Origin: Hyphomonadaceae bacterium
GTDB lineage: Bacteria; Pseudomonadota; Alphaproteobacteria; Caulobacterales; Hyphomonadaceae
Length of the DNA: 64,000 bases
Assembly: GCA_022844345.1 (NCBI GenBank)
Contig: JALHLU010000015.1
Span: 9,680 to 73,679 of the forward strand
Direction of reading: 5' to 3'
The notes under the pieces are model-generated. The model did not search any database, was not told the origin of the DNA, and worked only from the letters and a program-made list of their open reading frames with translations. Shown here in pieces: positions 26,935 through 45,577 of this stretch. The translations under genes were made by a program, and so were the position numbers. Positions within the stretch are counted from its first letter, which is position 1. The number at the start of each line of letters is the position of its first letter.

Positions 26935-27311
26935 AGATTCAAACTGGCAGCGAATTGTTGCATTTTGCTGAACACGTCCCTTTAACCCCGAAATAGAGCT
27001 ACGGGAATTGCACTCGCTCAGCAGGTGCAGCAATTTCACGCCATCGTGTGCGGATTCGCTGGCATGCCCGGAGCATCAGACGCAGCTCGCAGCGCACTAC
27101 AGACGCTTGCACGCTGGTGCGCGGTTGCGGCCTTCCGCATTTTCAGCCGCCACCTGCGCTACGAGCGAGCAATGTCCCGATCCACGAAAAGACCGCTTTG
27201 AACTCACCCATGGCCTGCAAACCTGGTTGGACAATTCCCCTGGCAGGGTCGAAGGTCGATCTATGCAGGCGCCCGAACCGAGGCGACACAGTCTCGCGAA
27301 CAGTGGTGAGT

Positions 27312-28346
27312 ATGCCTATGAAAATGGCTCGTCTGTTTTGTCTGGCGTTAGCCGCAATCGGCGCGACGGCGACGGCTCAAGAGGTTTCGAAATACACTCC
27401 GTCCCGGACAAGCTGGGGGGCGCCGGACCTGCAGGGCGTGTGGAACAATACGTCGCTCACTCAACTGGAGCGACCTTCACGGATAGATAAGCTCGCGGTC
27501 AGCGCAGAAGAAGCAGCGTTTCTGGCCCGCCAGCACACCTATACACGCGCAGCCTATCAAGACGGCAGTCAGTCCAGACTGGATACAGAGTCGTCCCGGC
27601 GCTTGCTGGCCGACAAGAACACCTCACGCGCTTACAACAGTTTCTGGCTGGATCCCGGAACGGGCTACGCTCAGGTGAGAGGCGAATACCGCACGTCGTG
27701 GATCACAGAGCCAGGTGATGGCCGCATTCCCTATCGCGACCCAGCCAGCGCAACACGCCCTCGGACGCAGATATTCGATGGACCTGAAGCGCGGCCTCAG
27801 TCGGAACGATGTCTGATGAGCTTTACGGGCGGGGCCGGGCCCGTGATGAACAGCGGTCTGTACAACAGCAACTACCAGATTGTGCAGACGCCCGGCTATG
27901 TGATGATTCTCAGCGAGATGATCCATGATGTCCGCATCATCCCCATGGGAGGCCAGCATGCATCGCGCGACATTCCGAAATGGGGCGGTGATGCGATCGG
28001 CTGGTATGAGGGCGACACGCTCGTAGTCGAGACGGTGAACCCCAACCCCGGGCAGCGGTCATACATTTCCGCAGCCGGAAAGCTAACTGAGCGCTTCACC
28101 CGCTGGAGCAATGGGCAAATCGTCTATGAGTTCACCGTAGACGACCCGACGCTTTATACGAAAACATGGAACGGCGAGATTGCGCTCAACGCTTCAAAGC
28201 AGCCTTTGTATGAGTACGCATGCCATGAAGGAAACTACGCTCTCCCCAGTATACTGAACGGCGCCCGCGTCCTTGAGCGTGAAGGACGTGAGCAACCTCC
28301 GATCAAGGAACCATACCCCGGCGTTGATGTTTCGGAGGGCCAGTAG
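27312..28346 (+). CDS. secreted protein of unknown function
   Basis: 344 aa counted from the ATG at 27312. Signal peptide MPMKMARLFCLALAAIGATATAQE. A conserved-looking YEYACHEGNY motif lies near the C-terminus. No family name that I can support. Confidence 0.6.
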   Translation: MPMKMARLFCLALAAIGATATAQEVSKYTPSRTSWGAPDLQGVWNNTSLTQLERPSRIDKLAVSAEEAAFLARQHTYTRAAYQDGSQSRLDTESSRRLLADKNTSRAYNSFWLDPGTGYAQVRGEYRTSWITEPGDGRIPYRDPASATRPRTQIFDGPEARPQSERCLMSFTGGAGPVMNSGLYNSNYQIVQTPGYVMILSEMIHDVRIIPMGGQHASRDIPKWGGDAIGWYEGDTLVVETVNPNPGQRSYISAAGKLTERFTRWSNGQIVYEFTVDDPTLYTKTWNGEIALNASKQPLYEYACHEGNYALPSILNGARVLEREGREQPPIKEPYPGVDVSEGQ

Positions 28347-28864
28347 ACGAACTCGCGTAGAGGGAGCGGCTGCAACCCATTGCAAGAGATTGCTGCAAAC
28401 CCTGTAACGCGGGCAACAGATTGTTTCGCAAACGTTAGGCTCGGTTGCGTCAAAGTCTGCGTATTACAACTGGCTCGCAGTCCGGGGAGGAGGAGTTGCT
28501 CCGCGATGGGGTCAGCGCGCTTCAACAACTGCTTTCCGCTTTGACCGCTGATAGCGCGCCGTCAGCGTCAAATCGGAATTTCTCGAAAGGGCCGCGAGTT
28601 TGCCGATCCCCGAAATGTGGCGATGCGGCTGAGTCGATCCAGTTACGTCATTCAGGCGGCGGGACGTGCTGCGGCGGGAGCTCGCCCAATAAGCGTCGTT
28701 CGTAATCTTCGGGGTTTCAGGCCGGATTGGCGAGATCACAAATTAAGCCTGGGTAAGCGCTTCTCCAGCATGCCAACTGTGTCCGGAAGATGAGCAACCT
28801 CCGTAGTTAAAGCTTCGGACTTGCGGCGGCCGGCTCCCGGACAAGCTGCGCGTTCGTTGATATG

Positions 28865-30846: not shown

Positions 30847-31113
30847 TCAGCGCCGGAAGACGCCGACGAGTTCTTCGATGACCTTTTCCTGCTCTGAAGC
30901 GTTCTTCGAGTTCATAGCGCGGTGCACGCAATGGCCAAGGTGTTGCCGCAACAGGTCGCTTTCGATGCGCGCGAGCGCAGCACGGGCCGCTTCGATCTGT
31001 GTCACCACATCAATGCAATAGCGGTCCTCCTCGACCATTTTCGCGATGCCGCGAACCTGCCCTTCTACCCGGTTCAGATTCTTCAGAACCTTCTCGGAAA
31101 CCGATTTTTCCAT
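30847..31113 (-). CDS. csoR: CsoR-family Cu(I)-sensing repressor
   Basis: 88 aa counted from the ATG at 31113, DUF156 fold. x-C-H-C ligand pattern (RYCIDV ... HLGHC). Divergent from the Cu ATPase gene. Confidence 0.88.
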   Translation of the reverse strand: MEKSVSEKVLKNLNRVEGQVRGIAKMVEEDRYCIDVVTQIEAARAALARIESDLLRQHLGHCVHRAMNSKNASEQEKVIEELVGVFRR

Positions 31114-31114
31114 A

Positions 31115-31154
31115 TACCCCTCCCGGGTACTTGATTGATACCCCCATAGGGTAT
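31115..31154. promoter_or_regulatory. two CsoR-type operator dyads in the csoR/copA intergenic region
   Basis: TACCC-CTCCC-GGGTA (31115-31129) and ATACCC-CCATA-GGGTAT (31138-31154). GC-tract-centred dyads are typical of CsoR operators. Confidence 0.7.
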
Positions 31155-31170
31155 ATGTCCGGGAGACGAA

Positions 31171-33672
31171 ATGCAAGCCCCGGAGGGCGCCATGGCGCAT
31201 ACCCACCCTGAAGGATCTGAACTGAAAGATCCCGTCTGCGGCATGACGGTGAAACCAGATACGCCCCATCGCGAAACGCACGACGGCCACGAGGTGCTGT
31301 TCTGCAGCGCGGGCTGCAAAACGAAATTCCAGGCCGAGCCTGGTCGATATCTGAAACCTGCCGCCAAGACCGAACACAGCTGCTGTTCCGCGGATGGGGC
31401 CAAGGCTGGGCACGCTAGCGGTCAGGATGCCGGGAGCCATCATCACCTCCATTCACACGCTCCATCCCCTGCACCTGCTACAGCCTCCGCTCCTGCCGGC
31501 GCGAAATGGACCTGCCCGATGCATCCGGAGATTGTGCGGGATGGGCCGGGCTCCTGCCCGATCTGCGGAATGGCGCTCGAGCCGATGATGCCGACGGCCG
31601 AAGCAGGGCCGAACCCCGAGCTCGCCGACATGTCCCGTCGCTTCTGGGTGGGTCTGGTCCTGGCGTTGCCGGTGCTAGTTCTGGAGATGGGCCGTCACTT
31701 ATTCAACGTCGATGCTCTTGTACCTCCGCAAATCAATGCGTGGATCCAGTTTGGCCTCGCGACACCGGTAGTCCTTTGGGCGGGTTGGCCATTCTTCGAA
31801 CGGGGCTATGCTTCGCTTGTCAACCGAAGCCTCAACATGTTCACGCTGATTGCGCTCGGGACGGGAGTGGCATGGACCTACAGCGTGGTCGCCCTGCTCT
31901 TCCCCTCGGCGTTTCCGCCAGAGTTCCGCGGCCCACATGGCGATGTAGCCGTCTATTTTGAAGCGGCCGCCGTCATCATAGTGCTTGTGCTCCTCGGGCA
32001 GGTTCTGGAGCTGGGCGCACGCGAGCGTACGGGGGGCGCCATCCGCGCCCTGCTCGATCTTGCTCCCAAGACTGCGCGCCGCATCAGTGACGGCGAAGAA
32101 GCGGAAGTACCGCTTGATGCAATCATGGTCGGCGATCGGTTGCGCGTCCGCCCTGGTGAGAAGACGCCGGTTGACGGCGTTGTCATCGACGGTCGCTCCA
32201 CGGTCGATGAGTCGATGGTTACCGGCGAATCCATGCCTGTCACGCGGAGCGTCGGCGACGCGGTCATTGCGGGCACGCTCAACCAGACCGGCGCGCTCGT
32301 GATCGAAGCCAAACGCGTCGGCCGCGACACCATGCTGTCGCAGATCGTCCAGCTGGTTGCCGACGCGCAGCGCAGCCGTGCGCCGATTCAGCGCCTGGCA
32401 GACAAGGTATCAGGCTGGTTCGTACCTGCAGTGATCGCTATTGCCGTCCTGGCGTTTATCGGCTGGTGGGCGTTCGGTCCGCAGCCCTCCTTCACCTATG
32501 GACTGATCGCTGCCGTTTCCGTTCTGATCATCGCGTGTCCGTGCGCGCTTGGCCTCGCCACCCCCATGTCCATCATGGCGGGTGTTGGTCGCGCAGCACG
32601 TCAGGGTGTCCTTATCCGCAACGCTGAGGCGCTGGAGCGCTTCGAGAAGGTCAATACTCTGGTTCTCGACAAGACCGGAACACTGACTGAGGGCAAGCCA
32701 GGTGTTGTCGCGATCACTACGGTTGCAGAGACAAGCGAAGCTGACCTGTTGCGCGCAGCCGCAAGTCTTGAGCAGCGCAGCGAGCACCCCCTTGCGCTTG
32801 CCGTCGTCGCAGCCGCTAAAGAACGTGGCGTCTCGCTGGTCGAGCCGACGGAATTCGATTCGCCGACTGGAAAGGGCGTCATCGGCAAGGTCGAGAGCAA
32901 GACCGTCGCGCTTGGCGCCGAACGCTATCTGGATGAACTCGGTATCGCGACATCTTCCCTTCACTCCGAAGCAGAACGTCTGCGCGCGGATGGCGTCACG
33001 GCCATTTTTGTTGCGATCGACGGCAGACTAGCTGGCGTTGTGGGCATCGCTGACCGAATCAAGGCGACCACGCCTGAGTCGCTCAAGGCGCTGCGCGCCC
33101 AAGGCATCGAACTGGTGATGCTGACCGGCGACAATCGCACGACAGCCGAAGCCGTCGGCCGGACCCTCGGCATCACGAATGTCGAGGCAGAAGTCCTGCC
33201 TGAAGACAAATCGCGCATAGTCGAAAGGCTCAAGCGAGAAGGCCGCATCGTTGCGATGGCGGGAGACGGCGTCAATGACGCGCCGGCTCTGGCGGCGGCT
33301 GACGTTGGGATCGCCATGGGGACAGGCACGGATGTCGCCATCGAAAGTGCTGGCGTCACATTGCTCCGGGGCGATCTCAGCGGGGTTGTGAAAGGCCGGG
33401 CTGTGTCGCGCGCGACAATGGCGAACATCCGGCAGAATCTGGTTTTTGCGTTCGGCTACAATGCCCTCGGGATCCCTGTTGCCGCTGGCCTTCTTTATCC
33501 AATCACGGGTCAGCTGCTGTCCCCCATGATCGCGGCGCTCGCCATGGCGTTGTCCTCGGTATCGGTAATCGTGAACTCGCTGAGGCTGGGGGCCACGCCG
33601 AACGACGGAGCACACGGGTCGGGCCAGCCACCGCTTCCGGCGCCAACCCGGTCAGGCGCTAGTTGCCACTAG
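31171..33672 (+). CDS. copA: Cu(I)-exporting P1B-1 ATPase
   Basis: 833 aa with CPC ([13 protein letters not shown]), YN (FGYNALGIP), MALSS, DKTGTLT and GDGVNDAP. The N-terminus carries a TRASH/YHS-like motif (DPVCGMTV...FCSAGC) and a CPMHPE...CPICGM ribbon instead of an HMA fold. Confidence 0.93.
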
Positions 33673-33695
33673 CGGTCCGGGGCGGAGCCCCTGGT

Positions 33696-33722
33696 GAGGG
33701 TTCTGCCCACAAGCTGCGTACT
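33696..33722 (+). promoter_or_regulatory. candidate ECF-type promoter upstream of copC
   Basis: GAGGGTTCTGCCCACAAGCTGCGTACT. It shares GAGGG-N13-CTGCGTACT with the site upstream of the oxidase copA. It resembles the CnrH-type -35 (..AGGGG..) and -10 (CCGTATA) as I recall them. Confidence 0.4.
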
Positions 33723-33777
33723 ATGTACGACCCCCTCCCCGCCGCACAAAATCTGCGGCTAGATCAACGAGCATCCG

Positions 33778-34134
33778 ATGAAAAACAAGCTTCTGACTCT
33801 CATGCTGGCGGCAACGCTCCTGGGCGCATCGCCCGCCTTCGCCCACGGCGGCATGATGGAAACCAGCATTCACGACAAGGCCAGCCTTGCGCAGGCCCCG
33901 GCCGAGTTCAAAGTGACATTCCAGCACGAGAGCGCCATCACCAGCCTGATGTTGATGACAGCGGACAAGAAGATGATCGCGGTTGATTTCAAGCCGTCGA
34001 AGGCCATGGGAAAGGAATTCACGATCCCACTGCCGACGCTCGCAAAAGGCTCCTACACGCTGTCCTGGAAGTCGATGGCGAAGGATGGCCATGCCATGCC
34101 GGGCGCCGTGCGCTTCACGGTGACAGGCCAGTAG
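33778..34134 (+). CDS. copC: periplasmic copper-binding protein CopC
   Basis: 118 aa. Signal peptide ending AFAHG (mature N-terminal His). CopC-fold pattern ...YTLSWKSMAKDGHAMPGAVRFTV. Confidence 0.88.
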   Translation: MKNKLLTLMLAATLLGASPAFAHGGMMETSIHDKASLAQAPAEFKVTFQHESAITSLMLMTADKKMIAVDFKPSKAMGKEFTIPLPTLAKGSYTLSWKSMAKDGHAMPGAVRFTVTGQ

Positions 34135-34138
34135 CACC

Positions 34139-34990
34139 GTGACCGGAGACGGACTGTCGCTGCTGCAGTTCGCCGACCGGATCGGTCTCAATCTCTTTGC
34201 GCTTCTGACGGTCGGTTTCGCGCTCCATGCTGCTTTGGGCATCGTGGAGCGCGATGCATTTCGAGGCGTGCGGTCACGCATCGCGCTTGCCGGTCTTGCC
34301 CTCGCTTTCTTCACCATGGTGCGGTTCGGCATTCTGATCGCGCAGATGGGGGATGGGACGAATGCCTTCGATCCCGAACTGATGCCACTGGCGTGGATGG
34401 TCCTCGGCGATTCGACGCTTGCGATCCTTGCAGGAGTCGCCATCTCCGTCGGAGGCGCCTGGTTCGGTTCACCACTCACTGCCGCCCTTGGAGCAGCCGC
34501 GCTCAGTTTTGGATTCGGCCTCGCGGGACACGCGCAGGGTCTGGCCGATCCTGGCCTCGCGCCGCTTGCGGTCGCCGTGCACGTCTTCATCGCCGGTTTC
34601 TGGGTGGCCGCTCCGGTCAGTCTCTATCCGGCCCCGACGCAGGAAGACCCTGAACTTCTTTCCCGTCTCCGACGGTTCAGTTCAATCGCCGTCGTCGCTA
34701 TTCCTGTTCTGATTGCACTCGGCGCATGGCTCGCCTGGACGTTGGCCGGGGGGATGGAGAAGCTATTCGGCACGACTTATGGTCTTCTTCTGCTCGCCAA
34801 GCTCGCGATCGGCATTGTCGCGATGGGCCTCGGCGCTCTCAACAAGCAGATCATAACGGTGAAGATCGCAACTGATCCGGCCATCGGCCGCAAGTGGCTG
34901 CGCGTAACGCTGCTGTGCGAGGCGACCCTGTTTGCAGCGGCCATCATTGCCGTCTCCGCCGCCACCACGATTGGTGGTCCTGCCGAGTAA
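34139..34990 (+). CDS. copD: copper resistance membrane protein CopD
   Basis: 283 aa with a GTG start. Eight hydrophobic segments. Sits immediately downstream of copC. Confidence 0.85.
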   Translation: MTGDGLSLLQFADRIGLNLFALLTVGFALHAALGIVERDAFRGVRSRIALAGLALAFFTMVRFGILIAQMGDGTNAFDPELMPLAWMVLGDSTLAILAGVAISVGGAWFGSPLTAALGAAALSFGFGLAGHAQGLADPGLAPLAVAVHVFIAGFWVAAPVSLYPAPTQEDPELLSRLRRFSSIAVVAIPVLIALGAWLAWTLAGGMEKLFGTTYGLLLLAKLAIGIVAMGLGALNKQIITVKIATDPAIGRKWLRVTLLCEATLFAAAIIAVSAATTIGGPAE

Positions 34991-35080
34991 CGGAGGCTCA
35001 GCATCCGTGCAGGATGCTTCGCTGGGCCGGCAATCCCGCCCACAGCGGCCAAGAATCGGATGCCTGTCCAATCCTTGCGT

Positions 35081-35103
35081 GAATTCCACCTCCCCTGCGT
35101 ATA
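35081..35103 (+). promoter_or_regulatory. candidate autoregulated ECF promoter upstream of the cnrY-like gene
   Basis: CCCTGCGTATAG, with CGTATA at 35098-35103, about 33 nt before the ATG. The -10 matches the CnrH-type CCGTATA at 6 of 7 positions. The -35 (GCGTG at the aligned position) is poor. Confidence 0.35.
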
Positions 35104-35135
35104 GACTGGAGAGACGTACTTATTGGGAGACCGGC

Positions 35136-35411
35136 ATGTCGCCAGAACTGGACCATTTGCTGGCGAAATTGAACCAGCAGCCGCTGGACCGTGATCTTGG
35201 CGGCATAACCGTCGAGATCGGCGAGCAGCTCTCGGAGCGTGCCAAGATTGACGGCCAGACCTGGCGGCTGCGTACCGCCGCTATGGCGCTCCTCGTAATG
35301 GGCGGCGCTGCCGTAAGCGCCTCGACCGCATCAGCCGTAGCGCCCTCCCCATCGCCATTTGCCGCCTGGTCCAGCCTTGCGCCGTCAACCCTGCTGGAGC
35401 CTTCCGAGTGA
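35136..35411 (+). CDS. small single-pass membrane protein, CnrY-like anti-sigma candidate
   Basis: 91 aa with a GGGAGA RBS. One TM helix (AAMALLVMGGAAV). GTGA overlap with the cnrX-like gene. The assignment rests on size, topology and position only. Confidence 0.55.
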   Translation: MSPELDHLLAKLNQQPLDRDLGGITVEIGEQLSERAKIDGQTWRLRTAAMALLVMGGAAVSASTASAVAPSPSPFAAWSSLAPSTLLEPSE

Positions 35412-35848
35412 AGGTTTCGGTGCGCAGCGCCATCATCACGGTTGTCCTCGCCTTCGCAGCCGGGATCGCCGGCATGTGGCTTGGCCACCAGCTGCTCGCC
35501 GCCCCACCGCAAGATCGGTCCCTGCACGCGATGGTGCATGACGAACTTTCGCTGACAGCCGAACAGGAGAAGGCGCTTCACACTCTCGAGGCGGACTTCG
35601 CAGCACGGCGGCAAGCCCTGGAGGGCGAGATGCGAGAGGCCAATGCGGAGCTGGCCGCAGCAATCCGAGCAAGCGAGACCGCAGGACCGGCCGTGGAGGC
35701 GGCTGTGCATCACTTCCACGACGCCATGGGCGCGCTTCAGACGGAGACGATCGCGCACATCTTCGCGATGCGCAACGTGCTCACCCCAGAACAGCGCAGG
35801 CAGTTCGACGACAGGATCGGCGAGGCGTTGACCGCCGACGCCAAATGA
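35408..35848 (+). CDS. cnrX: CnrX/NccX-type periplasmic metal sensor
   Basis: 146 aa with a GTG start and an N-terminal TM anchor. H40, H44, E61, H117 and M121 reproduce the spacing of the CnrX ligands H42/H46/E63/H119/M123. Blocks LHAMVHDE and HIFAMR. Confidence 0.85.
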   Translation: MKVSVRSAIITVVLAFAAGIAGMWLGHQLLAAPPQDRSLHAMVHDELSLTAEQEKALHTLEADFAARRQALEGEMREANAELAAAIRASETAGPAVEAAVHHFHDAMGALQTETIAHIFAMRNVLTPEQRRQFDDRIGEALTADAK

Positions 35849-36426
35849 GCGGAACCAATCCGGACGATAGCGACGCCGTGCTTGCCGCGCGCGCGCTGAA
35901 GGGAGATCGCTCAGCTTTCAACCTTATTGTCCGGCGCCATCAGGAGCCGCTCTACCGCTTCATCCGTCGCTACGTTGGCGATGCCGATGAAGCGTACGAT
36001 CTCCTTCAGGAAACCTTCGTTTCAGCCTGGCAGGCGCTCGGGCGTTATGATCCCGCTCGTCCCGCGGCGACCTGGCTTCGTCGGATCGCGCTCAACAAAT
36101 GCCGGGACTGGGGTCGCCGTCGCGTTGTCCGGAAGTTCTTCTACGCGGCCAAGATGCTTGATGAAACCACTGCCACGCCGGACGTTAGCGCCTCGCCAAA
36201 CTCCGAGGACAATACTGAGGTCGCGCTGACCCGCCTCGACCGGGCGATCGCCGCTCTGCCTGTTCAGCTGAAGGAGCCCCTTCTCCTTACCGCCTTCGAA
36301 GGCTTGTCCCAGGCGGCAGCTGGCGAAGCGCTCGGAATTTCTGCCAAGGCCGTCGAAACCCGCGTCTACCGCGCCCGCAAGCTGCTTGCGGAAGCGCTCA
36401 CGGCCGACGGCGTTGATGTCGACTAA
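35845..36426 (+). CDS. cnrH: ECF sigma factor (CnrH-like)
   Basis: 193 aa with sigma-70 regions 2 and 4 (DEAYDLLQETFVSAW; LSQAAAGEALGISAKAVETRVYRARKLL). ATGA overlap with the cnrX-like gene. Confidence 0.85.
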   Translation: MSGTNPDDSDAVLAARALKGDRSAFNLIVRRHQEPLYRFIRRYVGDADEAYDLLQETFVSAWQALGRYDPARPAATWLRRIALNKCRDWGRRRVVRKFFYAAKMLDETTATPDVSASPNSEDNTEVALTRLDRAIAALPVQLKEPLLLTAFEGLSQAAAGEALGISAKAVETRVYRARKLLAEALTADGVDVD

Positions 36427-36439
36427 CCTTTGGCGTCAG

Positions 36440-36940
36440 CTATGTGGCTGCGCGCGACGACCAATGAATATGCGCGATGCGCCAGCCTTCGGCGGTGTTG
36501 CGCAGGATCATCGTTTCGGTCGTTACGCGATCCACGGGCTTGTCCTTGTAATTTCCGGTCGCGCGGCTTTCGCTGACAATCCATGCGGTATCGCCATCGA
36601 CAAGGCCATTGCGCCGCGTGAGTCTTGACGGAACAGCCGCAGCGTAGGCGGCGTCGGCCCCCGCATGATGCGAAGCATATTCGGCTCTCGAGCGTTCCGC
36701 ATGGCCGCTCTCGAAGATCAGCGCATCGTCAGCAAGTAGCGCTGCAGCGGCTGCGCCATCACCTCCGGAAAGTTTGGCATGAAAGGCGTCAACCGCCTTC
36801 GCTGCCTCCTGTGCTTCTGACGACATGAGCGCGACCGGTGGCGCAAGACCGTTCTGCGCTGCGGCGACAGAGGGCGCCATCGCCAGAAGCGATGCCGCCA
36901 GAATCCAGCGATTGCGATTACGGGTCATGCCATGCTCCAA
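36440..36940 (-). CDS. secreted SnoaL-like/DUF4440 (NTF2-fold) protein
   Basis: 166 aa with a signal peptide (WILAASLLAMAPSVAAAQ). The end reads ...ETMILRNTAEGWRIAHIHWSS, typical of DUF4440. Last gene of the copA-copB string. Confidence 0.65.
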   Translation of the reverse strand: MEHGMTRNRNRWILAASLLAMAPSVAAAQNGLAPPVALMSSEAQEAAKAVDAFHAKLSGGDGAAAAALLADDALIFESGHAERSRAEYASHHAGADAAYAAAVPSRLTRRNGLVDGDTAWIVSESRATGNYKDKPVDRVTTETMILRNTAEGWRIAHIHWSSRAAT

Positions 36941-36958
36941 TCCTGTCCAGGCCGCACG

Positions 36959-37978
36959 TCAGTACCACGCCCGCAGGCCGATGACGAAGCTCGTCGTCTC
37001 CGCGCTCTCTCCGTCGGCCCGCGCATAGTCGGCCGTATCCCCGAATTTGCGTTCCCACGAGACGCCGATGTAGGGGGCGAACTCGCGCTGAAACTCGTAA
37101 CGGAGACGCAGGCCCACTTCCGCGTCGGAAAGCCCGGAGCCAAGGCCAATGGCAGCATCGTCTTTGGCGGCGAAGTTCACTTCGGCGCGTGGCTGGAGGA
37201 CGAGGCGCTGCGTGAGCTGGAAATCGTAGTTGCCATCGAGACGCCCAAGCACCTGCCCGCGTTCGCCGACGAACAGCGCTCCCTCCACTTCGAACCAGTA
37301 AGGCAGGACTGTTTCAAAGCCCAGCGCGAGGTAAGTACGCGAAGGATTGGGTTCGATGTCCTGTCGGATGCCAATCTGAAGGTCAGTGACGTGATCCCAG
37401 GCGCGCGAGTAGAGCGCCTGGATTTCTGCGCTCTCGATATCTTCGCCACCTTCGCCTTCGGTCTTGATGACAAAGCGATCGATGTCGCCGCCGAACCATG
37501 CCTCGCCATTCCATGCATAGCCATCCTCGCCGTCCTGGCTGCGATACTCGATCATATCGCCCATGATCTTGTAGGTCAGCGCACCGCCATGCTCGTCGCG
37601 CAGGATGCCGCGCGCCCGGTTCATGTCGTCCACTCCAAAGAAGCGGTCGGCCGCAAATTCAGCTGGCGCGTCAGGCGGTACATCATTGCCAGCCTCCGGC
37701 GGATCAACGAACTCCTCGGCCATCTTGTGGCCAGCATGCGGGTCCAGCGCAGCAGCAGCGGGTTTACCGCCGTGATCATGCTGTGCGTGCGGTTCAGCAG
37801 GCGCTGCCCGTTGCGGTTGCGGCACTGGGGTCTTTGGCGTGGGCGTTTGGGGCGCGGGCTTTGGGGCCGCGGGCGCCTGAGGAGCCGGCGTCTGTATCGT
37901 CCCATGGCCTTCGTGCTGCGCGAGCGCCGGAGCTGCTATGCCAAGGGATAGAGCGGCAAGAAGAAGATACCGGTTCAT
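36959..37978 (-). CDS. copB: outer-membrane copper resistance protein CopB/PcoB
   Basis: 339 aa with a signal peptide. His/Pro-rich N-terminus. The C-terminal barrel ends in ...SFVIGLRAWY. ATGA overlap with copA. Confidence 0.9.
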   Translation of the reverse strand: MNRYLLLAALSLGIAAPALAQHEGHGTIQTPAPQAPAAPKPAPQTPTPKTPVPQPQRAAPAEPHAQHDHGGKPAAAALDPHAGHKMAEEFVDPPEAGNDVPPDAPAEFAADRFFGVDDMNRARGILRDEHGGALTYKIMGDMIEYRSQDGEDGYAWNGEAWFGGDIDRFVIKTEGEGGEDIESAEIQALYSRAWDHVTDLQIGIRQDIEPNPSRTYLALGFETVLPYWFEVEGALFVGERGQVLGRLDGNYDFQLTQRLVLQPRAEVNFAAKDDAAIGLGSGLSDAEVGLRLRYEFQREFAPYIGVSWERKFGDTADYARADGESAETTSFVIGLRAWY

Positions 37979-39786
37979 GCGGCAGCTCCATCGAGCGGGC
38001 GTACAGTGAAGACCTGAAACATCCCTGCGTGCATGTGGTAGAGCATGTGGCAGTGGAAGGCCCAGTCGCCGGGCTCGGCCGTGAAGTCGAACTTCACAAT
38101 CCCGCCCGGAGCGGCAATGACCGTGTGCTTGCGCGGCATGTGGCCTAGAGGGGCCCGGTGGACCAACTCAAAAAAGTGACCATGCAAGTGAATGGGGTGC
38201 GCCATCATGGTGTCGTTGACGAGGCTGACGCGGACACGTTCGTTTTTGCGAAAGGCGTAGGGTGCCGGCTTGTCGGAGAACTTCTTGCCGTCGAAGCCCC
38301 ACATGAATCGCTCCATGTTGCCGGTGAGGCGGATCTCCAGTTCGCGCGAGGGCGCACGTGTGTCGGCGTTCGGCTCCAGTGCGATGAGGTCCTTGTAGAC
38401 AAGAACACGATGGCCAACGCTCTCAAGGCCCTGCCCGGTCTCCCCGGTGCGATCCATCGGCATGGGGGCAATTGACTGCACACCCGGCCCAAGCTCGACC
38501 TGCGGCGCGTTCATCCAGTTTCGCATGGACATGTCCATGCCTTCCATCCCAGCCATATCGCCCATCACATCCGACCCGCGCACGCGCGGCGCCGCCATCC
38601 CAGGTACAGCCACCGCAGCCATACCCGCATGGCCAGCATGCTCGCCCCCGCTCATGCCGCCCATGTCGTGCGCCATGCCCATATCTTTCATGGTCCCCAG
38701 AGGGCGCTCCCGCAGCGGTGGGACCTCCGCTGTCATGCCAAGGCGTGGCGCAAGCGTTGCGCGCGCCATCCCCGAACGATCGACGGCCTCAGCAACCAGC
38801 GTGAAGGCCCGATCTTCGGTCGGCGTGACGATGACGTCATACGTCTCGGCGTTACCGATCTGGAACTCGTCAACCGTGACCGGACGCACATTCTGCCCGT
38901 CGGTCGCCACGACACTAAGCTTCAGGCCGGGAATGCGCACATTGAAAATGGTCTGCGCCGCGGCGTTGATGAAGCGCAGACGGACGCGCTCGCCGGGCGT
39001 GAAGAGACCCGTCCAGTTGTCGGCAGGTCCGCGACCGTTGACGAGGAAGGAATAGACCGCCCCGGTAATGTCCGAGATGTCGGTCGGATCCATGAGCTCG
39101 CGGGCCCACTCCATGCGCTCGGCAAGCGACTGGTCCTGGCCAGCCAGAAGCCCCGCGATGGTCTGCTTCTGAAAATTGAACACACCCGCTTCCTGCTTCA
39201 GCTTTTGGAACAGGCGGTGCGGGTGGATGAAGCTGTAGTCCGACAAAACGATCACATGCTCGCGGTCGTAGGCCACCGGATCGGGACCGGCCGGATCAAC
39301 GATCATCGCTGCGTAGTGTCCCTCCTGCTCCTGCAGTCCGGAGTGACTGTGAAACCAGTAGGTGCCCGACTGTTTCACGGGGAATTCGTAAGTGAAGGTC
39401 TCACCAGCCCGGATTCCCGGAAAGCTGACGCCGGGCACGCCATCCATTTCGAACGGCACCAGCAGCCCGTGCCAGTGGATCGACGTATCTTCTTCAAGCG
39501 TGTTGGTAATATGCAGGCGAACGGTCTGGCCTTCCCTGAGCCGAATGATTGGGCCAGGGACAGTTCCGTTGATGGCGACTGCATGACCCGTCCTGCCATC
39601 AATCGTGATCTGGCTGTGGCCGATCGTCAGGTGGATGTCCGAGCCGGACAGGGTCTGGGTCTCCATGGCGGCAGCAGCGGGTTGCTGGGCCCAAGCGCCG
39701 GGTCCGAACGCCGCAGCGACACTCGAAAGCGCCGTACCAACTAAAAATTGCCGCCGGCCAAGGCCTCGCATCGCCCTGTCGCCCAT
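37975..39786 (-). CDS. copA: multicopper oxidase CopA/PcoA
   Basis: Start at 39786 with GAGGAG 6 nt upstream. Tat signal (GRRQFLVGTAL). HWHG, HSH and HCHMLYHM copper sites. Met/His/Gly-rich insert (MKDMGMAHDMGGMSGGEHAGHAGM...). Confidence 0.92.
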   Translation of the reverse strand: MGDRAMRGLGRRQFLVGTALSSVAAAFGPGAWAQQPAAAAMETQTLSGSDIHLTIGHSQITIDGRTGHAVAINGTVPGPIIRLREGQTVRLHITNTLEEDTSIHWHGLLVPFEMDGVPGVSFPGIRAGETFTYEFPVKQSGTYWFHSHSGLQEQEGHYAAMIVDPAGPDPVAYDREHVIVLSDYSFIHPHRLFQKLKQEAGVFNFQKQTIAGLLAGQDQSLAERMEWARELMDPTDISDITGAVYSFLVNGRGPADNWTGLFTPGERVRLRFINAAAQTIFNVRIPGLKLSVVATDGQNVRPVTVDEFQIGNAETYDVIVTPTEDRAFTLVAEAVDRSGMARATLAPRLGMTAEVPPLRERPLGTMKDMGMAHDMGGMSGGEHAGHAGMAAVAVPGMAAPRVRGSDVMGDMAGMEGMDMSMRNWMNAPQVELGPGVQSIAPMPMDRTGETGQGLESVGHRVLVYKDLIALEPNADTRAPSRELEIRLTGNMERFMWGFDGKKFSDKPAPYAFRKNERVRVSLVNDTMMAHPIHLHGHFFELVHRAPLGHMPRKHTVIAAPGGIVKFDFTAEPGDWAFHCHMLYHMHAGMFQVFTVRPLDGAAA

Positions 39787-39833
39787 CCGTAGCTCCTCGT
39801 CGGAAAGAGTTGCGCGATTGCGCGCCTGCAAAC

Positions 39834-39860
39834 AGTACGCAGGGCGCGCCATAATCCCTC
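39834..39860 (-). promoter_or_regulatory. candidate ECF-type promoter upstream of the multicopper oxidase copA
   Basis: The minus strand reads GAGGGATTATGGCGCGCCCTGCGTACT. It has the same GAGGG-N13-CTGCGTACT layout as 33696-33722, about 49 nt before the ATG. Confidence 0.4.
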
Positions 39861-40069
39861 GGCAAAGTCGCATTGGGGCGCCTGCCCACGCTGCCGTTCG
39901 CGGTCAGCGATCCTGAGACGAATAAGGGCGCCGTTCGCCCGGGGCCCATTCCATCCGCAGCGCCAAATTGGGGGTATGGCCTTCGCAGCAATGGCGGGAC
40001 AGGTCCCCGCTGCCAGCGCTCACGCGGGCGCCTCGATCACCGTGCATCGGCATGAGGCCCGTCAAGCCC

Positions 40070-40570
40070 TCACTGACTGCCGGTATAGCGGCTGAAGACA
40101 CTCTGGCTTCCGTCCGCCCCGAAGGCGACGACCTCATAAGGATCGACGGCCCCGTTGGGTTGCTCCATCCCGGGTGATCCGCGTGGCATCCCCGGCACCG
40201 CGATCCCCTTCACGCCGGCGGGGCGCAGGTCCAGCAAGCGCAGTATATCCTCAGCGGGCACATGGCCTTCGACGACAAGGCTTTCGACCAGAGCGGTGTG
40301 ACAAGACCCGAGGCCAGCTGGAACGCCCAGTCTGCGTTTGAAAGCCGGGAGATCCGGTGCATCAATCATCGTCACGCGAAAGCGGCCCGTCGTCTGTACG
40401 ATCTCTGTCCAGACATGGCAGCAGGGACAGCCAGTATCCCGGCTGACCTGCATGTCATAGATCCGCGGCGCTTGCTGGCACGCGACAACACCCGCAGTGG
40501 CGCCGAGCACGGTTGAGGCGGACAGCCACCGTAGCACCGTCCGCCGTCCGAGTTGTACGTTTTCGGCCAT
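40070..40570 (-). CDS. copG: CopG-family (DUF411) periplasmic metal-binding protein
   Basis: 166 aa with a Tat/Sec-like leader. CPCCHVW motif and the GMPRGSPGME motif typical of DUF411. Confidence 0.85.
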   Translation of the reverse strand: MAENVQLGRRTVLRWLSASTVLGATAGVVACQQAPRIYDMQVSRDTGCPCCHVWTEIVQTTGRFRVTMIDAPDLPAFKRRLGVPAGLGSCHTALVESLVVEGHVPAEDILRLLDLRPAGVKGIAVPGMPRGSPGMEQPNGAVDPYEVVAFGADGSQSVFSRYTGSQ

Positions 40571-40591
40571 TTGGTCTCTTCCTGAACTCGC

Positions 40592-40975
40592 CTACTGCTT
40601 CACAATCCGGCTGATCTTCGTGGGCTCAGCGGCGCTCATGAGATCGAACACGACCATGTCGCCGACCTTGAGGTCCTTCAGCATGGCTGGATCGGTCGTG
40701 GTGAAGCCCATGCTCATGGCATCCCATTTCACTTCGGGTATGGCCTGATGTTCCAGCGTTACCGCGCCTGCTTCGGCATTGATCGCAACGATCTTGCCCA
40801 TGCTGGTGATGGGACCGGCCGCAGCTGGCGCCTCGGCTGCCATGGGCATGTCAGCCATGGCAGGCGCGGACTGCGTTTCAGCGACAGGCGCCGAAGCTGC
40901 GGGCTCCGGCGCCTGAGGTGAACACGCCGCCATCGCCAGAACGCTCAATGTCATCATCAACGTGGTCTTCTGCAT
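40592..40975 (-). CDS. cusF: CusF-like periplasmic Cu(I)/Ag(I) chaperone
   Basis: 127 aa. Lipoprotein-type signal (LAMAAC) and Met-rich linker. Core is GKIVAINAEAGAVTLEHQAIPEVKWDAMSMGF. Begins 1 nt after the cusA stop. Confidence 0.85.
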   Translation of the reverse strand: MQKTTLMMTLSVLAMAACSPQAPEPAASAPVAETQSAPAMADMPMAAEAPAAAGPITSMGKIVAINAEAGAVTLEHQAIPEVKWDAMSMGFTTTDPAMLKDLKVGDMVVFDLMSAAEPTKISRIVKQ

Positions 40976-40976
40976 C

Positions 40977-43900
40977 TTAATCTCCAGAGGGTGCGATCCG
41001 GGTTGTTGCCGACGCGATGTGGGCGCGGCCGCGGCGCCGGATCATGAGGTAAGCCGCGGGAATAACAAAGAGAGACAGCAGCGGGGCGGTGATCATGCCG
41101 CCAACCAGCGGAGCAGCAATCCGGCGCATGACTTCCCCGCCTGCACCGTCTGTCCAGAGAATAGGCAGGAGGCCTGCAAGGACGACGGCGACGGTCATGG
41201 TTTTCGGCCGCAAGCGCAGCAGCGCCCCCTCACGGATCGCCGCCAGGATGGTCACCCCGTCAAGCGCTTCGCCCCGCCGTATGCGATCGTCCAGGGCGTT
41301 GCGCAGATAGAGAAGCATCACCACGCCGAACTCGGCAGCAAGGCCTGCAAGCGCAATGAAGCCCACCCCGACAGCCACCGACAGGTCATAGCCAAGGAGG
41401 TAGACCAGCCAGACGCCGCCGGTCAGCGCGAACGGGATGCTGGCCATGACAATGAGGGCTTCATCGAAGCGCCGGAAGGTCAGGAAGAGCAGCACGAAGA
41501 CGATGGTGAGCGTCACCGGGCCGATCACGGCGAGACGTTCGCCGGCGCGGGCGAGATACTCGAACTGTCCTGCAAACGAGGCCGTGACCCCGGCTGGAAG
41601 TTTTGCCTGCGCGACCGCATCACTCAGCTCCCCAACGACTGAAGCGATGTCGCGGCCGCGTACGTCGACATAGACGAAAGCGGCGAGGCGCCCATTCTCG
41701 CTCCGGATCATCGAAGGCCCGTCCGAGATGCTGATGCGCGCAACATCGTTCAAGGTCAGCAGCAGTCCCATGTCGGTAATGATCGGCAGCTGAGCCAGCC
41801 GCTCCGGCGTGTCCCGTAGCTCGCGCGGATAGCGCAGACTGATCGGATAGCGCGCCCTGCCCTCGACAAACTGACCGATCACCTCGCCGCCTACGGCCCC
41901 GGACACGATCTCCTGCACATCGGCAATGTTGAGGCCAAGGCGGCTTGCGGCCACACGATCAATCTCGATGTCGAGAAAGCGGCCGCTCCCCAGGCGTTCA
42001 GCGGCAGCCGACGAAACGCCGGGCACGCGCTTCGCCAACTGTTCCACAAGGCGAGCAGCTTCGTCGAGCGCGCCCAGTCCTGCCCCGCTGAGCTTTACGC
42101 CGATCGGGCTTTTGACGCCTGTCGCCTGCATGTCGATACGGTTTCGGATCGGAGGGACCCAGACATTGGTCAGGCCCGGGACCCGGACGCGTGCATCGAG
42201 CTCTGCGATGATCCGCTCAGTCGTCATGCCGGCGCGCCATTCAGACATTGGACGCAACCGGATCGTCGTCTCGAACATCTCGATCGGCGCGGGGTCAGTG
42301 GCCGTCTCGGCGCGTCCTGCCTTGCCGAAGACACGCTCGACTTCCGGGACTGTTTTGATGAGCCGGTCCGTCTGCTGAAGGAGTTCGGAGGCCTTGGCAG
42401 CCGACAGGCCAGGTTGCGCGGTCGGCATGTAGAGCAGATCGCCCTCGTCCATCGCCGGCATGAACTCCGCGCCAGAGCGCACCAGTGGCCACGCCGCAGT
42501 TGCAAGCACCAGAACCGCGGCCACAATGACGAGCGCCGGCCGCTTGAGTGCAAGGTCGAGCGCCGGACGGTAGGCAGAAGCCAAGGCCCTGTTCACCGGA
42601 TTTGCGTGCTCGTCCGGTATGCGTCCCCGGATCCAGTAGCCCATCAGCACCGGCGTCAGCGTGACAGCGAGGGCGGCCGCCGCCGCCATCGCGTAGGTCT
42701 TGGTGAAGGCAAGCGGTGCAAACAGCCTTCCCTCCTGAGCCTCCAGCGTAAACACGGGGAGGAAGGAGAGCGTGATGATCATGAGACTGAAGAACAGCGC
42801 CGGGCCGACCTCCAGCGAGGCCTGCGTAATGACCTGCCAGTGGTCGGTTCCAGACGGCATTTGTCCGTCATGATCTGCGCGCCACTGTTCGAGCCGCTTG
42901 TGGGCATTCTCGACCATGACAATCGCGGCATCCACCATCGCGCCGATGGCAATGGCGATGCCGCCGAGCGACATGATGTTGGCCTCGACGCCTTGTGCGC
43001 GCATGACCAGGAACGCCGCTGCGATCCCGAGCGGCAAGGTGACGATGGCCACGAGCGCCGACCTCAGGTGGAAGAGGAAGAGCGCGCACACGATCGCGAC
43101 GACGATGAATTCCTCGATCAGCTTGTGGGACAGGTTTTCGACTGCCCGATCGATCAGGATCGAACGATCATAGGTGGTGACAATCTCGACGCCTTGCGGG
43201 AGGCGCTCTTTCAGGCTCGCCAGCTTCGCCTCGACGCCAGCAATCACCTCGCGCGGGTTGGCGCCGGTGCGCATGACAATGACACCGCCGGCGACCTCGC
43301 CTTCGCCATCGAGTTCGGCAATCCCACGCCGCATCTGGGGTCCGACTTCGACCCAGGCCACATCGCCAAGCGTCACCGCCGTGCTGGCGCCAGCCGCCTT
43401 GACCGGGATGCTCTGAAAATCCTCCAGGGTCCGCAGATAGCCGCTTGCGCGCACGACGTGGTCCGCCTCAGCGATCTCGATGGATGCGCCGCCGGCTTCC
43501 TGGTTGGCGCGCGCGACAGCCTCCGCCACCATGCGCTGCGAGATCGCGTAGGCGGCCATCTTCTGCGGATCGAGGACGATCTGATACTGCCGGACCATGC
43601 CGCCAATGGACGCGACTTCAGCGACGCCGGGCACGGATTTGAGTTCGAACGCGAGCAGCCAGTCCTGCAGGGCGCGGAGCTGGCCCAGGTCGTGGGCGCC
43701 GGTGCGATCGACCAACGCATACTGGTAGATCCACCCGACGCCGGTGGCGTCCGGTCCAATGCTCGAGCGGGCCGCCTCGGGCAAGCGCTCGCGGGCCTGA
43801 CTCATGTATTCGAGCACGCGCGAGCGCGCCCAATAGAGATCAACACCTTCCTCGAAGATCACATAGACGAAGCTGTCGCCGAAGAAGGAATAGCCGCGCA

Positions 43901-44144
43901 CGCTGCGCGCACCTGGCACGGACAGCATGGCCGCGCTCATCGGATAAGTAATCTGATCCTCGACGATCTGCGGCGCCTGTCCTGGATAACTGGTCCGCAC
44001 CACGACCTGGACATCCGAGAGGTCCGGCAAGGCGTCGACGGGTGCTGACCTGATCGCCAACGCGCCTGCACCCGCAAGCGCAAGTGCTGCGAGCACGACG
44101 AGGAAGCGGTTGGCGACCGACCAGCGGATGATTGCGGCGATCAT
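40977..44144 (-). CDS. cusA: Cu(I)/Ag(I) HME-RND efflux pump CusA
   Basis: 1055 aa. [15 protein letters not shown] signature of the monovalent-cation class rather than DFG..DGA. Typical CusA N-terminus. Confidence 0.93.
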
Positions 44145-45577
44145 CGCGCAGCGTCCGCTTTGCGAAGCGCCGTCAGTTCATAGCTCGAGCCGACCTTGCG
44201 AAACGAGAATTCGACCGCATCCCCCACGGCAATGCCGCGATCGACCTCGCCCCAGCCGAACGCCATTGTCATCTCGGGCCAGGCGAGTTGGGGCACAGGC
44301 GCGTGGGAAAGCGTGACGCCGCTGGCGTCGATGGCGGTCACCCGCCCGGTCGACGAATAGACATCGAGTGCCGCGGAGGACGAACCACGCAGGCGTTCAA
44401 GCACGCCTGTCAGGTTGGCTTCGGAGTCGATCAGGAACTGGCCTGACGCGACAACACGCTGGCCTTCGCTGACACCTGACACGATCTGGAGACGGTCGCC
44501 GATCGCGGCGCCCAGCGTCACCTCCACAGGCTCAAAGCCACCGCCTTCGTTCGCGACGATGACAAGCGACCGGCGTCCCGTCCGGATCACCGCCTCGGAG
44601 GGTACGGTGATCGCGGCCTCCCTGCTAGCGCCCGACAGGGTCACGTCGCCTGTCATGCCGGGACGAAGACGCCCGTCGCGATTGTCGAGCGTGACCCTCA
44701 CTTCGACCGTTCGATTGACGAGGTTTGCGCCTGGAAGCAGCGCATCGATCCGGCCGGTGAATGCTTCTCCGTCAAACGCGGGAAAGGTCGCGCGTGCGGA
44801 GGCGCCGGCCTTTAGTCCGCCGAGCGAGCCCTGCGGGACCGATGCGACCAGCCACACGGGCGACAGTCCGCTGATCGTGGCGATCGGCTCGCCCGCACCG
44901 AGCGCAGCGCCGGGACGCGCGTCGAGCGCCATAACGGCACCCGCTACAGGCGCGCGCACCGTGAAGGTGGTCGGTGCGAGATTGCGCCTTTCGGCGGCTG
45001 CAATCGCATCGCCTGGAACGCCCAGCGCATCGAGCCGGAGGCGCGCTGCGGTCGCAAGCCTTGCCTCTGATCCCGCGCGCAGCGCCAGATATTCCGCCAG
45101 CGCCCCACTCCACGCCGGCACACGCATGTCGATCAAGGGATCGCCTGCGCGCACAACGTCACCGACGGCTCGGCCATGGCCGCGATCGACGAAGCCGTCC
45201 TGCTTGGCCTGCACTGTTGCGAGCGACCGATCATTGTAGATGAGCGTGCCCGACGCCCGAATCTCTGCGCCCGCTGATGTCAGCTCGACGGCGGCAAGGC
45301 GGATGCCCAGATTCTGGACCATGCCAGGACTGATCGCGACGCCGGCCTGCGCCTGGGCTTCGCCCGCAAAACGCGGCACAAGATCCATGTCCATGAAGGG
45401 CGACTTGCCGGGCTTGTCGAAATGGGTATCCGGCATCATCGGATCGTACCAGTAGAGGACAGCCCGCTCATCCACCGCTGCCGCGGGCTGCTGTCGTCCC
45501 AGCCAAAAGCCAGTCGCGCCGACAAATGCTGTTGCGAACGCGAGGGACACCGCGATCAAAACGCGCCTGCGTGTCAT
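44141..45577 (-). CDS. cusB: CusB periplasmic adaptor
   Basis: 478 aa. The [27 protein letters not shown] motif is characteristic of CusB. ATGA overlaps on both sides. Confidence 0.9.

Follow-up and report, generated by a model that had tools for sequence, protein, structure and literature searches.

A 64,000-nt stretch of a Hyphomonadaceae genome (assembly GCA_022844345.1, contig JALHLU010000015.1, positions 9,680 to 73,679 of the forward strand; hereafter, the window) carries a full Cop set, comprising the CopA multicopper oxidase, CopB, CopC, and CopD, next to genes for a CnrH-type sigma factor from the extracytoplasmic function (ECF) family, a CnrX-like periplasmic metal sensor, and a small membrane protein in the position of CnrY. 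We propose, with a probability of about 0.8, that three bipartite sites in this region, upstream of copC, copA, and the cnrY-like gene, are promoters of the ECF291 (CnrH) type that are read by the local sigma factor (35845-36426) and by its paralog in a second cop cluster on contig C13 of the same genome. Judged from the sequences, a membrane sensor module of the nickel/cobalt (Ni/Co) type very probably switches on periplasmic copper-resistance genes, an arrangement that is common to many alphaproteobacteria. In 80 loci the sites strictly accompany this sigma family and keep one spacing, which supports a tie between the two; dependence on the sigma factor, the transcription start sites, and read-through within the operons are predictions that follow from this reading, and copper is most likely the signal. 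Textbooks present copper-resistance operons such as copABCD and pco as targets of two-component systems. In the window and in many other alphaproteobacterial genomes, cop operons are apparently driven by an ECF sigma factor under a CnrYX-type sensor pair, which, if true, would represent a new and widespread class of copper-responsive sigma signalling.

Probable promoter sites of canonical form upstream of copC and copA

The sites before copC and copA (Table 1) have the motif GAGGG-N13-CTGCGTACT in common, with exactly 16 nt between GAGGG and CGT in each, as the original prediction had stated; the sequences it gave for both sites and for CCCTGCGTATAG (35093-35104), upstream of the cnrY-like gene, also read as claimed. 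Its distances to the start codons needed adjustment. The copC motif ends 55 nt, not 58 nt, before the ATG at 33778, and the copA motif, correctly placed upstream of its gene, lies 47 nt rather than about 49 nt before the ATG at 39786. We took the latter as the copA start on the basis of the twin-arginine signal MGDRAMRGLGRRQFL that directly follows it and of the family model, which aligned from residue 6; an in-frame upstream ATG at 39873, proposed as the copA start by the open reading frame (ORF) finder, was rejected. The motif is therefore upstream of copA and not within the gene.

A scan for sigma-70 promoters returned nothing upstream of copC or copA. P_copA is separated from the DUF411 gene by a hairpin resembling a terminator, consistent with copA having its own promoter. 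Transferring the geometry of the cnrYp promoter, in which the mapped start lies 9 nt past the A of CCGTA, places the predicted starts at about 33729 ± 2 (+) for P_copC, 39827 ± 2 (-) for P_copA, and about 35110 (+) for the site before the cnrY-like gene. Each of the two predicted 5' leaders of the canonical promoters contains a short hairpin or palindrome. That of copC is GCCGCA-CAAAATC-TGCGGC (33741-33759, +), whose stem recurs with other loops in two relatives (L016 and L017), and that of copA is GCGCG-CAAT-CGCGC (39811-39825, -), present in close relatives only; an Rfam scan of 33400-40200, which covers both, gave zero matches.

The motif is rare in the genome. With up to two mismatches allowed, the window held three matches against 0.40 expected, a number attained in none of 100 shuffles, and the whole 4.19-Mb assembly held four exact matches against about 0.06 expected from base composition. 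These four are the two in the window and two at the equivalent positions of the paralogous cop cluster on contig C13. With a weight matrix built from related loci, five sites in the genome scored at least 20 bits, compared to zero in reversed-sequence controls, and four of the five were the cop promoters. The C13 cluster (14.7 kb, approximately 62299-76902) pairs with window positions 30847-45459 at 84.6% identity and includes a csoR fragment, the ATPase gene, copCD, the cnrYXH-like genes, snoaL, copBA, the DUF411 gene, and pump genes; it has both canonical promoters and a cnrY-upstream site identical to that of the window. The two sigma paralogs are 92% identical and so are likely to cross-activate both clusters.

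We compared 80 loci (0.90 Mb in total), each encoding a relative of the sigma factor, drawn from Hyphomonadaceae, Caulobacteraceae, Sphingomonadales, Micropepsaceae, and some other groups; the search behind them confirmed at least 421 sigma relatives. The core GAGGG-N15-GCGTA occurred 181 times in these loci, whereas each of the other spacings from N10 to N14 and from N16 to N20 occurred only 0 to 6 times; as a baseline, the window's own 4.19-Mb genome held 2 to 11 instances of the core per spacing. The consensus across loci was T-GAGGG-(A/G)-T ... (T/C)-GCGTA-T, and the sites were co-directional with the downstream gene, 30-60 nt before the start codons. The genes downstream of 180 exact sites were those of the anti-sigma/sensor operon (~50 sites), the copA oxidase (42), CopC (29), CusF-like proteins (7), DUF6152 (5), DUF411, DUF2231, and PepSY_TM (4 each), and Cu ATPases and DUF305 (2 each).

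Counted by gene class, with a minimum score of 16 bits (and a distance limit of 300 nt in the case of copA), the sites were specific for the first genes of operons. A site stood upstream of 47 of 63 copA-type oxidase genes and 13 of 16 copC genes, but of 0 of 56 copB, 0 of 16 copD, 0 of 79 sigma, and only 2 of 41 P-ATPase genes; the value for copD is what is expected of an internal operon gene. Gene order varies: this clade has copCD-YXH and a convergent copAB, and sphingomonads have copC<>YXH>copAB. The association between site and gene was kept despite this, as a regulon predicts. Alignment of nine copA upstream regions left GAGGGAT and GCGTA as the sole invariant blocks, and in 11 orthologous copC upstream regions TGAGGG and GCGTA were invariant while the spacer varied. 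The sigma module was present in 9 of the 18 same-genus genomes searched, a patchy distribution that fits a mobile island or a self-contained mobile unit. A cultured isolate, Caulobacter sp. FWC26, also has the module, on its conjugative plasmid p1 (226437-227742); neighbouring genes encode DUF305, CueR, and a Cu ATPase, and there is no oxidase gene within 6 kb of the module.

The variant site before the cnrY-like gene and the sensor module

The original prediction had noted a related -10 element before the cnrY-like gene. Both elements are conserved, the -10 in its consensus form and the -35 as TGCGTG where the consensus has TGAGGG. In an alignment of cnrY upstream regions, TGCGTGAA and TGCGTATA.ACT were invariant in 12 orthologs despite differing spacers, and we therefore regard the site (P_cnrY) as conserved, with a -35 of variant form. 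Relatives at a greater distance carry a canonical GAGGG site in the same position. As expected for autoregulation, the anti-sigma gene is immediately preceded by a canonical site in most relatives, whereas in the window the canonical site heads copCD-cnrYXH and the conserved variant stands before cnrY. Since copCD follows the canonical site and precedes cnrY, transcription probably covers copC-copD-cnrY-cnrX-sigma as one unit, and the copD-cnrY junction has no predicted terminator. In this clade, cnrYXH would thus be co-transcribed with copCD from the copC promoter, with P_cnrY probably acting as a secondary, internal promoter.

The three proteins of the module resemble the CnrYXH and NccYXH systems to different degrees. 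Gene order (Y-X-H), overlapping genes, and a small single-pass protein in the CnrY position are all retained. The best match of the sigma factor among solved structures is CnrH (4cxf, E = 2.5e-33; next best, 7e-20), to which it is 39% identical, and it consists of sigma-2 and sigma-4 regions only. The sensor matches NccX (4clv, E = 4.4e-17) and CnrX (E of about 1e-15; 33% identity), and all five metal ligands are kept, H40, H44, E61, H117, and M121 corresponding to H42, H46, E63, H119, and M123 of CnrX; 65 of 78 sensor relatives have this HHEHM pattern. The 91-aa protein is the least similar. Its gene stands two places ahead of that for the sigma factor and shares 4 nt with the sensor gene. 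The protein has a single hydrophobic segment and, at its C-terminus, a conserved SPF...LAPSTLL motif in common with 58 relatives, features on which we name it a candidate anti-sigma factor.

Outside the ligand set, the sensors differ from those of Ni/Co systems. His104 and Met107 occur in all 65 copper-linked HHEHM sensors and in the FWC26 sensor, and position 74 is Glu or Asp in 61 of those 65, whereas the five Ni/Co-clade sensors checked, CnrX included, have Glu at 104, Ala at 107, and mostly Arg at 74. From helix periodicity, residues 74 and 104 are predicted to lie opposite one another on the two sides of the hairpin, and the charge swap between the two positions fits this arrangement. Residues 74, 104, and 107 may form an additional site of the copper type or act as a switch for selectivity. 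With the same five ligands in both forms of the CnrX fold and a His/Met pair that sets the copper-linked sensors apart from the Ni/Co-linked ones checked, the two groups offer a comparison for metal selectivity.

Table 1 Sites, proposed promoters, and genes of the window discussed in the text.
Feature	Position	Strand	Basis or remarks
CsoR-like repressor gene	30847-31452	-	Divergent, beside ATPase gene
Cu-type P-ATPase gene	31171-33672	+	Pfam/NCBIfam
P_copC site, GAGGGTTCTGCCCACAAGCTGCGTACT	33696-33722	+	Exact motif; sequence read directly
P_copC promoter	33695..33722	+	22.7 bits, second-best site in genome (weight matrix)
P_copC -35, T-GAGGG-TT	33695-33702	+	
P_copC -10, CTGCGTAC(T)	33714-33722	+	
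copC, periplasmic copper-binding protein; first gene after P_copC	33778..34134	+	Pfam CopC, 2e-17
copD, inner-membrane copper protein	34139..34990	+	Pfam CopD, 1.2e-15
P_cnrY variant promoter (predicted), TTGCGTGAAT-N12-CTGCGTATAG	35076..35104	+	16.1 bits; same in paralogous cluster
CnrY-like single-pass anti-sigma candidate, 91 aa	35136..35411	+	Position, topology
CnrX-like periplasmic metal sensor, 146 aa	35408..35848	+	Pfam Metal_resist, 3.7e-21
ECF sigma factor, CnrH type (ECF291-like)	35845..36426	+	Pfam Sigma70_r2 and r4_2
SnoaL/DUF4440-like gene	36440..36940	-	Pfam SnoaL_3, 3e-13; 19 nt downstream of copB
copB, outer-membrane copper-resistance protein; second gene in copA operon	36959..37978	-	Pfam CopB, 1e-84
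copA, multicopper oxidase with twin-arginine signal; first gene after P_copA	37975..39786	-	Three Cu-oxidase domains
P_copA site, GAGGGATTATGGCGCGCCCTGCGTACT	39834-39860	-	Exact motif; sequence read directly
P_copA promoter	39834..39861	-	21.5 bits (weight matrix)
P_copA -35, C-GAGGG-AT; -10, CTGCGTAC(T)		-	
Terminator-like hairpin GGGCGAACGGCGCCC with T-rich tail	39926..39940	-	Between DUF411 gene and P_copA
DUF411 gene	40070-40570	-	Pfam/NCBIfam
cusCBA-like pump genes	40977-46806	-	Gene content check

Relation to CnrH promoters and known copper switches

CnrH-dependent promoters had been given in the original prediction as CRAGGGGRAG / CCGTATA, and a resemblance of the window's sites to them had been claimed; both points agree with the sequences. 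In the pMOL28 sequence of Cupriavidus metallidurans CH34 (positions 353-382 and 1727-1756 on locus L089), cnrYp reads CAAGGGGGAG-N12-CCGTATAAG and cnrCp reads CGAGGGGAAG-N12-CCGTATAGAG, giving the core form (A/G)AGGG-N16-CCGTA(T), and four other CnrH-clade genomes have the same promoter form with N15 or N16. According to PMC13492112, which maps the start 23 bp before cnrY, the -10 element of cnrYp, CCGTATA, had earlier been verified by primer extension and run-off transcription. Like cnrYp and cnrCp, the sites in the window are bipartite, with (A/G)AGGG in a G-rich -35 and CGTAT in the -10, and one stands before the anti-sigma operon and another before a resistance operon. The targets differ, being an RND-type (resistance-nodulation-division) Ni/Co pump in Cupriavidus and cop genes here, as does the placement, with the canonical site before copC and the variant -35 before cnrY in the window.

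A 2026 study of Cupriavidus start sites lists for the ECF Hub group ECF291, the CnrH group, a -35 of ATACGC and a -10 of CCCTCA (Table 4 in PMC13492112), which together are the reverse complement of TGAGGG and GCGTAT. The published consensus appears to be in reverse orientation; once reverse-complemented, the motif of ECF291 (formerly ECF20) is identical to the TGAGGG/GCGTAT consensus of our sites and is the one found ahead of ECF291 operons, cnrYp and cnrCp on pMOL28 included. ECF291-assigned starts were reported there in a strain without CnrH, and no ECF291 match was found at cnrYp (PMC13492112). The reversed orientation may explain both results, and it may affect the promoter assignments of that study.

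The original prediction spoke of a Ni/Co-type module rewired onto cop genes. The sites at the cop genes support the connection, but the rewiring is not a local one, as the copper-linked form is widespread: scans that were limited in both cases by the search pattern recovered at least 421 relatives of this sigma factor and at least 5 genomes with the Ni/Co form (at least 58% identity to CnrH). Beyond the dissimilar CnrY-like protein and the residues at 74, 104, and 107 described above, the modules differ from CnrYXH and NccYXH in their predicted output, which is periplasmic copper detoxification and not an adjacent RND operon of the cnrCBA/nccCBA type. ECF291 was linked to efflux pumps in the ECF reclassification, and our literature search for a cop system under CnrX/ECF (CnrYX) control found no paper.

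The proposed circuit resembles CopRS, PcoRS, and CusRS in that a periplasm-facing sensor switches on copA-copB and copC-copD, and differs from them in its parts, which are an ECF sigma factor and an anti-sigma factor where those systems use a histidine kinase and an OmpR-type regulator. The genome encodes 12 OmpR-family (Trans_reg_C) regulators, none of them on C15 or C13, the contigs of the two cop clusters, so neither cluster has a CopRS/CusRS-type system nearby. In the reviews consulted (PMC6851896, PMC10141476), the ECF sigma factors listed as responding to copper are CorE and CarQ alone. CorE (ECF44/ECF238) and CarQ of Myxococcus xanthus control a multicopper oxidase and copper export genes, a role like that proposed for the sigma factor described here. 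CorE differs in binding copper itself through a Cys-rich C-terminal extension without an anti-sigma factor, and CarQ in being held by CarR, whereas the window encodes a separate periplasmic CnrX-type sensor together with the CnrY-like protein.

Proposed circuit, alternatives, and other sites

We propose that at rest the sigma factor would be held at the membrane by the CnrY-like protein, which would be paired with the CnrX-like periplasmic sensor, and that binding of a periplasmic metal, most likely copper, would release it. The free sigma factor would then fire P_copC, leading to expression of copC-copD and, by read-through, of cnrY-cnrX-sigma, thereby coupling output and feedback, and P_copA, leading to expression of copA-copB-snoaL. 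The conserved, weaker-looking P_cnrY would serve as the module's own entry point. The copA gene scores 797.8 bits with the NCBIfam model TIGR01480 (copper_res_A), whose cut-off is 479, and the SnoaL-like gene is probably the third gene of the copAB operon; none of 14 SnoaL homologues had an upstream site. The CsoR-like gene beside the ATPase gene suggests that cytoplasmic Cu(I) sensing is split from periplasmic sensing, with the CsoR-controlled Cu ATPase next door presumably handling cytoplasmic Cu(I) and the sigma module filling the role that CopRS/CusRS two-component systems have elsewhere. The consensus T-GAGGG-N15-GCGTAT and the sigma factor may also serve as an orthogonal sigma/promoter part.

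Several observations weigh against this scheme. The Ni/Co ligand set of CnrX is unchanged in the sensor, which means that copper specificity is not proven by sequence, and the 91-aa protein gave no match to CnrY with phmmer and a probability of only 5% with hhalign. At the 16.1-bit score of P_cnrY, the genome contains nine sites compared to seven in the control, so this score is non-significant, and the -35 of P_cnrY is off consensus. The spacer is N16 in cnrYp and cnrCp and N15 in the window, and their -10 is CCGTAT where ours is (T/C)GCGTA. The FWC26 module is without a canonical site and has the variant TTGCGGGAT-N..-GCGTATAG as its own promoter. Finally, copC is not separated from the ATPase gene by any predicted terminator, and transcripts begun at the CsoR-controlled promoter may run on and contribute to the expression of copC.

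An extension of the scheme, on which we are evenly divided, is that the alphaproteobacterial CnrYXH-like modules form a distinct class of periplasmic copper sensors whose selectivity comes from the clade-specific (E/D)74-H104-M107 site on the helical hairpin. They would then be the third copper-responsive ECF system after CorE and CarQ, the (E/D)74-H104-M107 site would add to or modulate the ancestral CnrX site, and the modules, which often lie on metal islands that are mobile, would take the place of CopRS/CusRS as the master switch of copAB and copCD in many members of the Caulobacterales and Sphingomonadales.

The most serious alternative, improbable but carrying some weight, accepts the promoters as genuine and sigma-dependent and differs in the signal, which would be Ni/Co, another metal such as Zn or Ag, or general envelope or metal stress, with the cop genes as part of a broader output. 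The full H/H/E/H/M ligand set of CnrX in the sensor is compatible with this, as is the mixed character of the metal island, which includes several RND pumps, a cation diffusion facilitator transporter, and arsenic genes. Yet copper proteins (CopA, CopC, CusF, DUF411, Cu ATPase, and DUF305) make up nearly all of the predicted targets in the 80 loci, the window's RND pumps have no site upstream, and the invariant H104/M107 pair with an acidic residue 74 separates the copper-linked sensors from the five Ni/Co-clade sensors with E, A, and mostly R.

Two further alternatives are far less probable. The bipartite motif might be an operator for a DNA-binding activator or repressor and not a -35/-10 pair, an idea to which the cnrY-upstream variant lends something, as it can be read as a direct repeat, TGCGT-N15-TGCGT. 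The two boxes differ from each other and are non-palindromic, though, and the motif is directional, with a single fixed spacing and a position 30-60 nt before start codons; its -10 carries the ECF-typical CGT and matches the verified CnrH -10, and it always occurs with the sigma gene, with no conserved DNA-binding regulator adjacent and none of the OmpR type on C13 or C15. Equally remote is the notion that a different alternative sigma factor of the host, such as the ECF factors encoded on contigs C11 or C8, serves the sites while the local sigma factor has other targets. The genome does encode further ECF sigma factors (30-32% identical), and ECF291-assigned starts were seen in a CnrH-less strain (PMC13492112), although by way of the apparently reverse-complemented consensus. 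Against this, the motif travels with the sigma gene across many genera and on plasmids, it stands ahead of the operon of the sigma factor itself in the majority of relatives, and the module is patchy in its genus in the way of a self-contained mobile unit. Chance, or a functionless by-product of recent duplication, is scarcely tenable as the source of the identity of the two sites: the four exact copies are two paralogous pairs and so count as two independent sequences in this genome, but the copC and copA upstream regions are not mutually paralogous and still have 14 specified bases in common, the boxes are conserved in orthologs with diverged flanks, and both the preference for one spacing (181 vs 0-6) and the per-gene counts (copA 47/63 vs copB 0/56) contradict it.

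Returning to the reading of the sites as ECF291-type promoters, we looked for other members of the putative regulon. The original prediction suggested that a matrix scan might find further sites before the RND operons; upstream of those in the window, the scan found no site of 12 bits or more. The fifth genome site above 20 bits, TTGAGGGGACATACGGAGATGTGCGTAA (contig C6, 279451-279480, +; 20.3 bits), lies 11 nt before the ATG of a gene for a PCuAC copper-chaperone lipoprotein (279487-279912), an arrangement that would give a nearly leaderless mRNA. Such a site was absent upstream of 19 homologous genes (38-65% identical) in related genomes, seven of which carry the sigma factor, and we regard the C6 gene as a candidate regulon member only.

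Three other matches in the window were set aside. An exact GAGGG-N15-GCGTA core at 28335-28359 (+) does not have the conserved T that precedes GAGGG elsewhere, and it extends over the stop codon of the ORF at 27048-28346; given also a chance rate of about 1 per Mb, we judged it to be a chance occurrence. This core heads a 520-bp stretch without an ORF. An isolated CTGCGTATTA at 28458-28467 (+) has no -35 at the proper distance and is probably due to chance. The match GACGG-N13-CTGCGTACC at 35250-35276 (+), with two mismatches and 12.9 bits, lies inside the cnrY-like coding sequence and was likewise attributed to chance; it is also found in one relative (L012), because the coding sequence is conserved.

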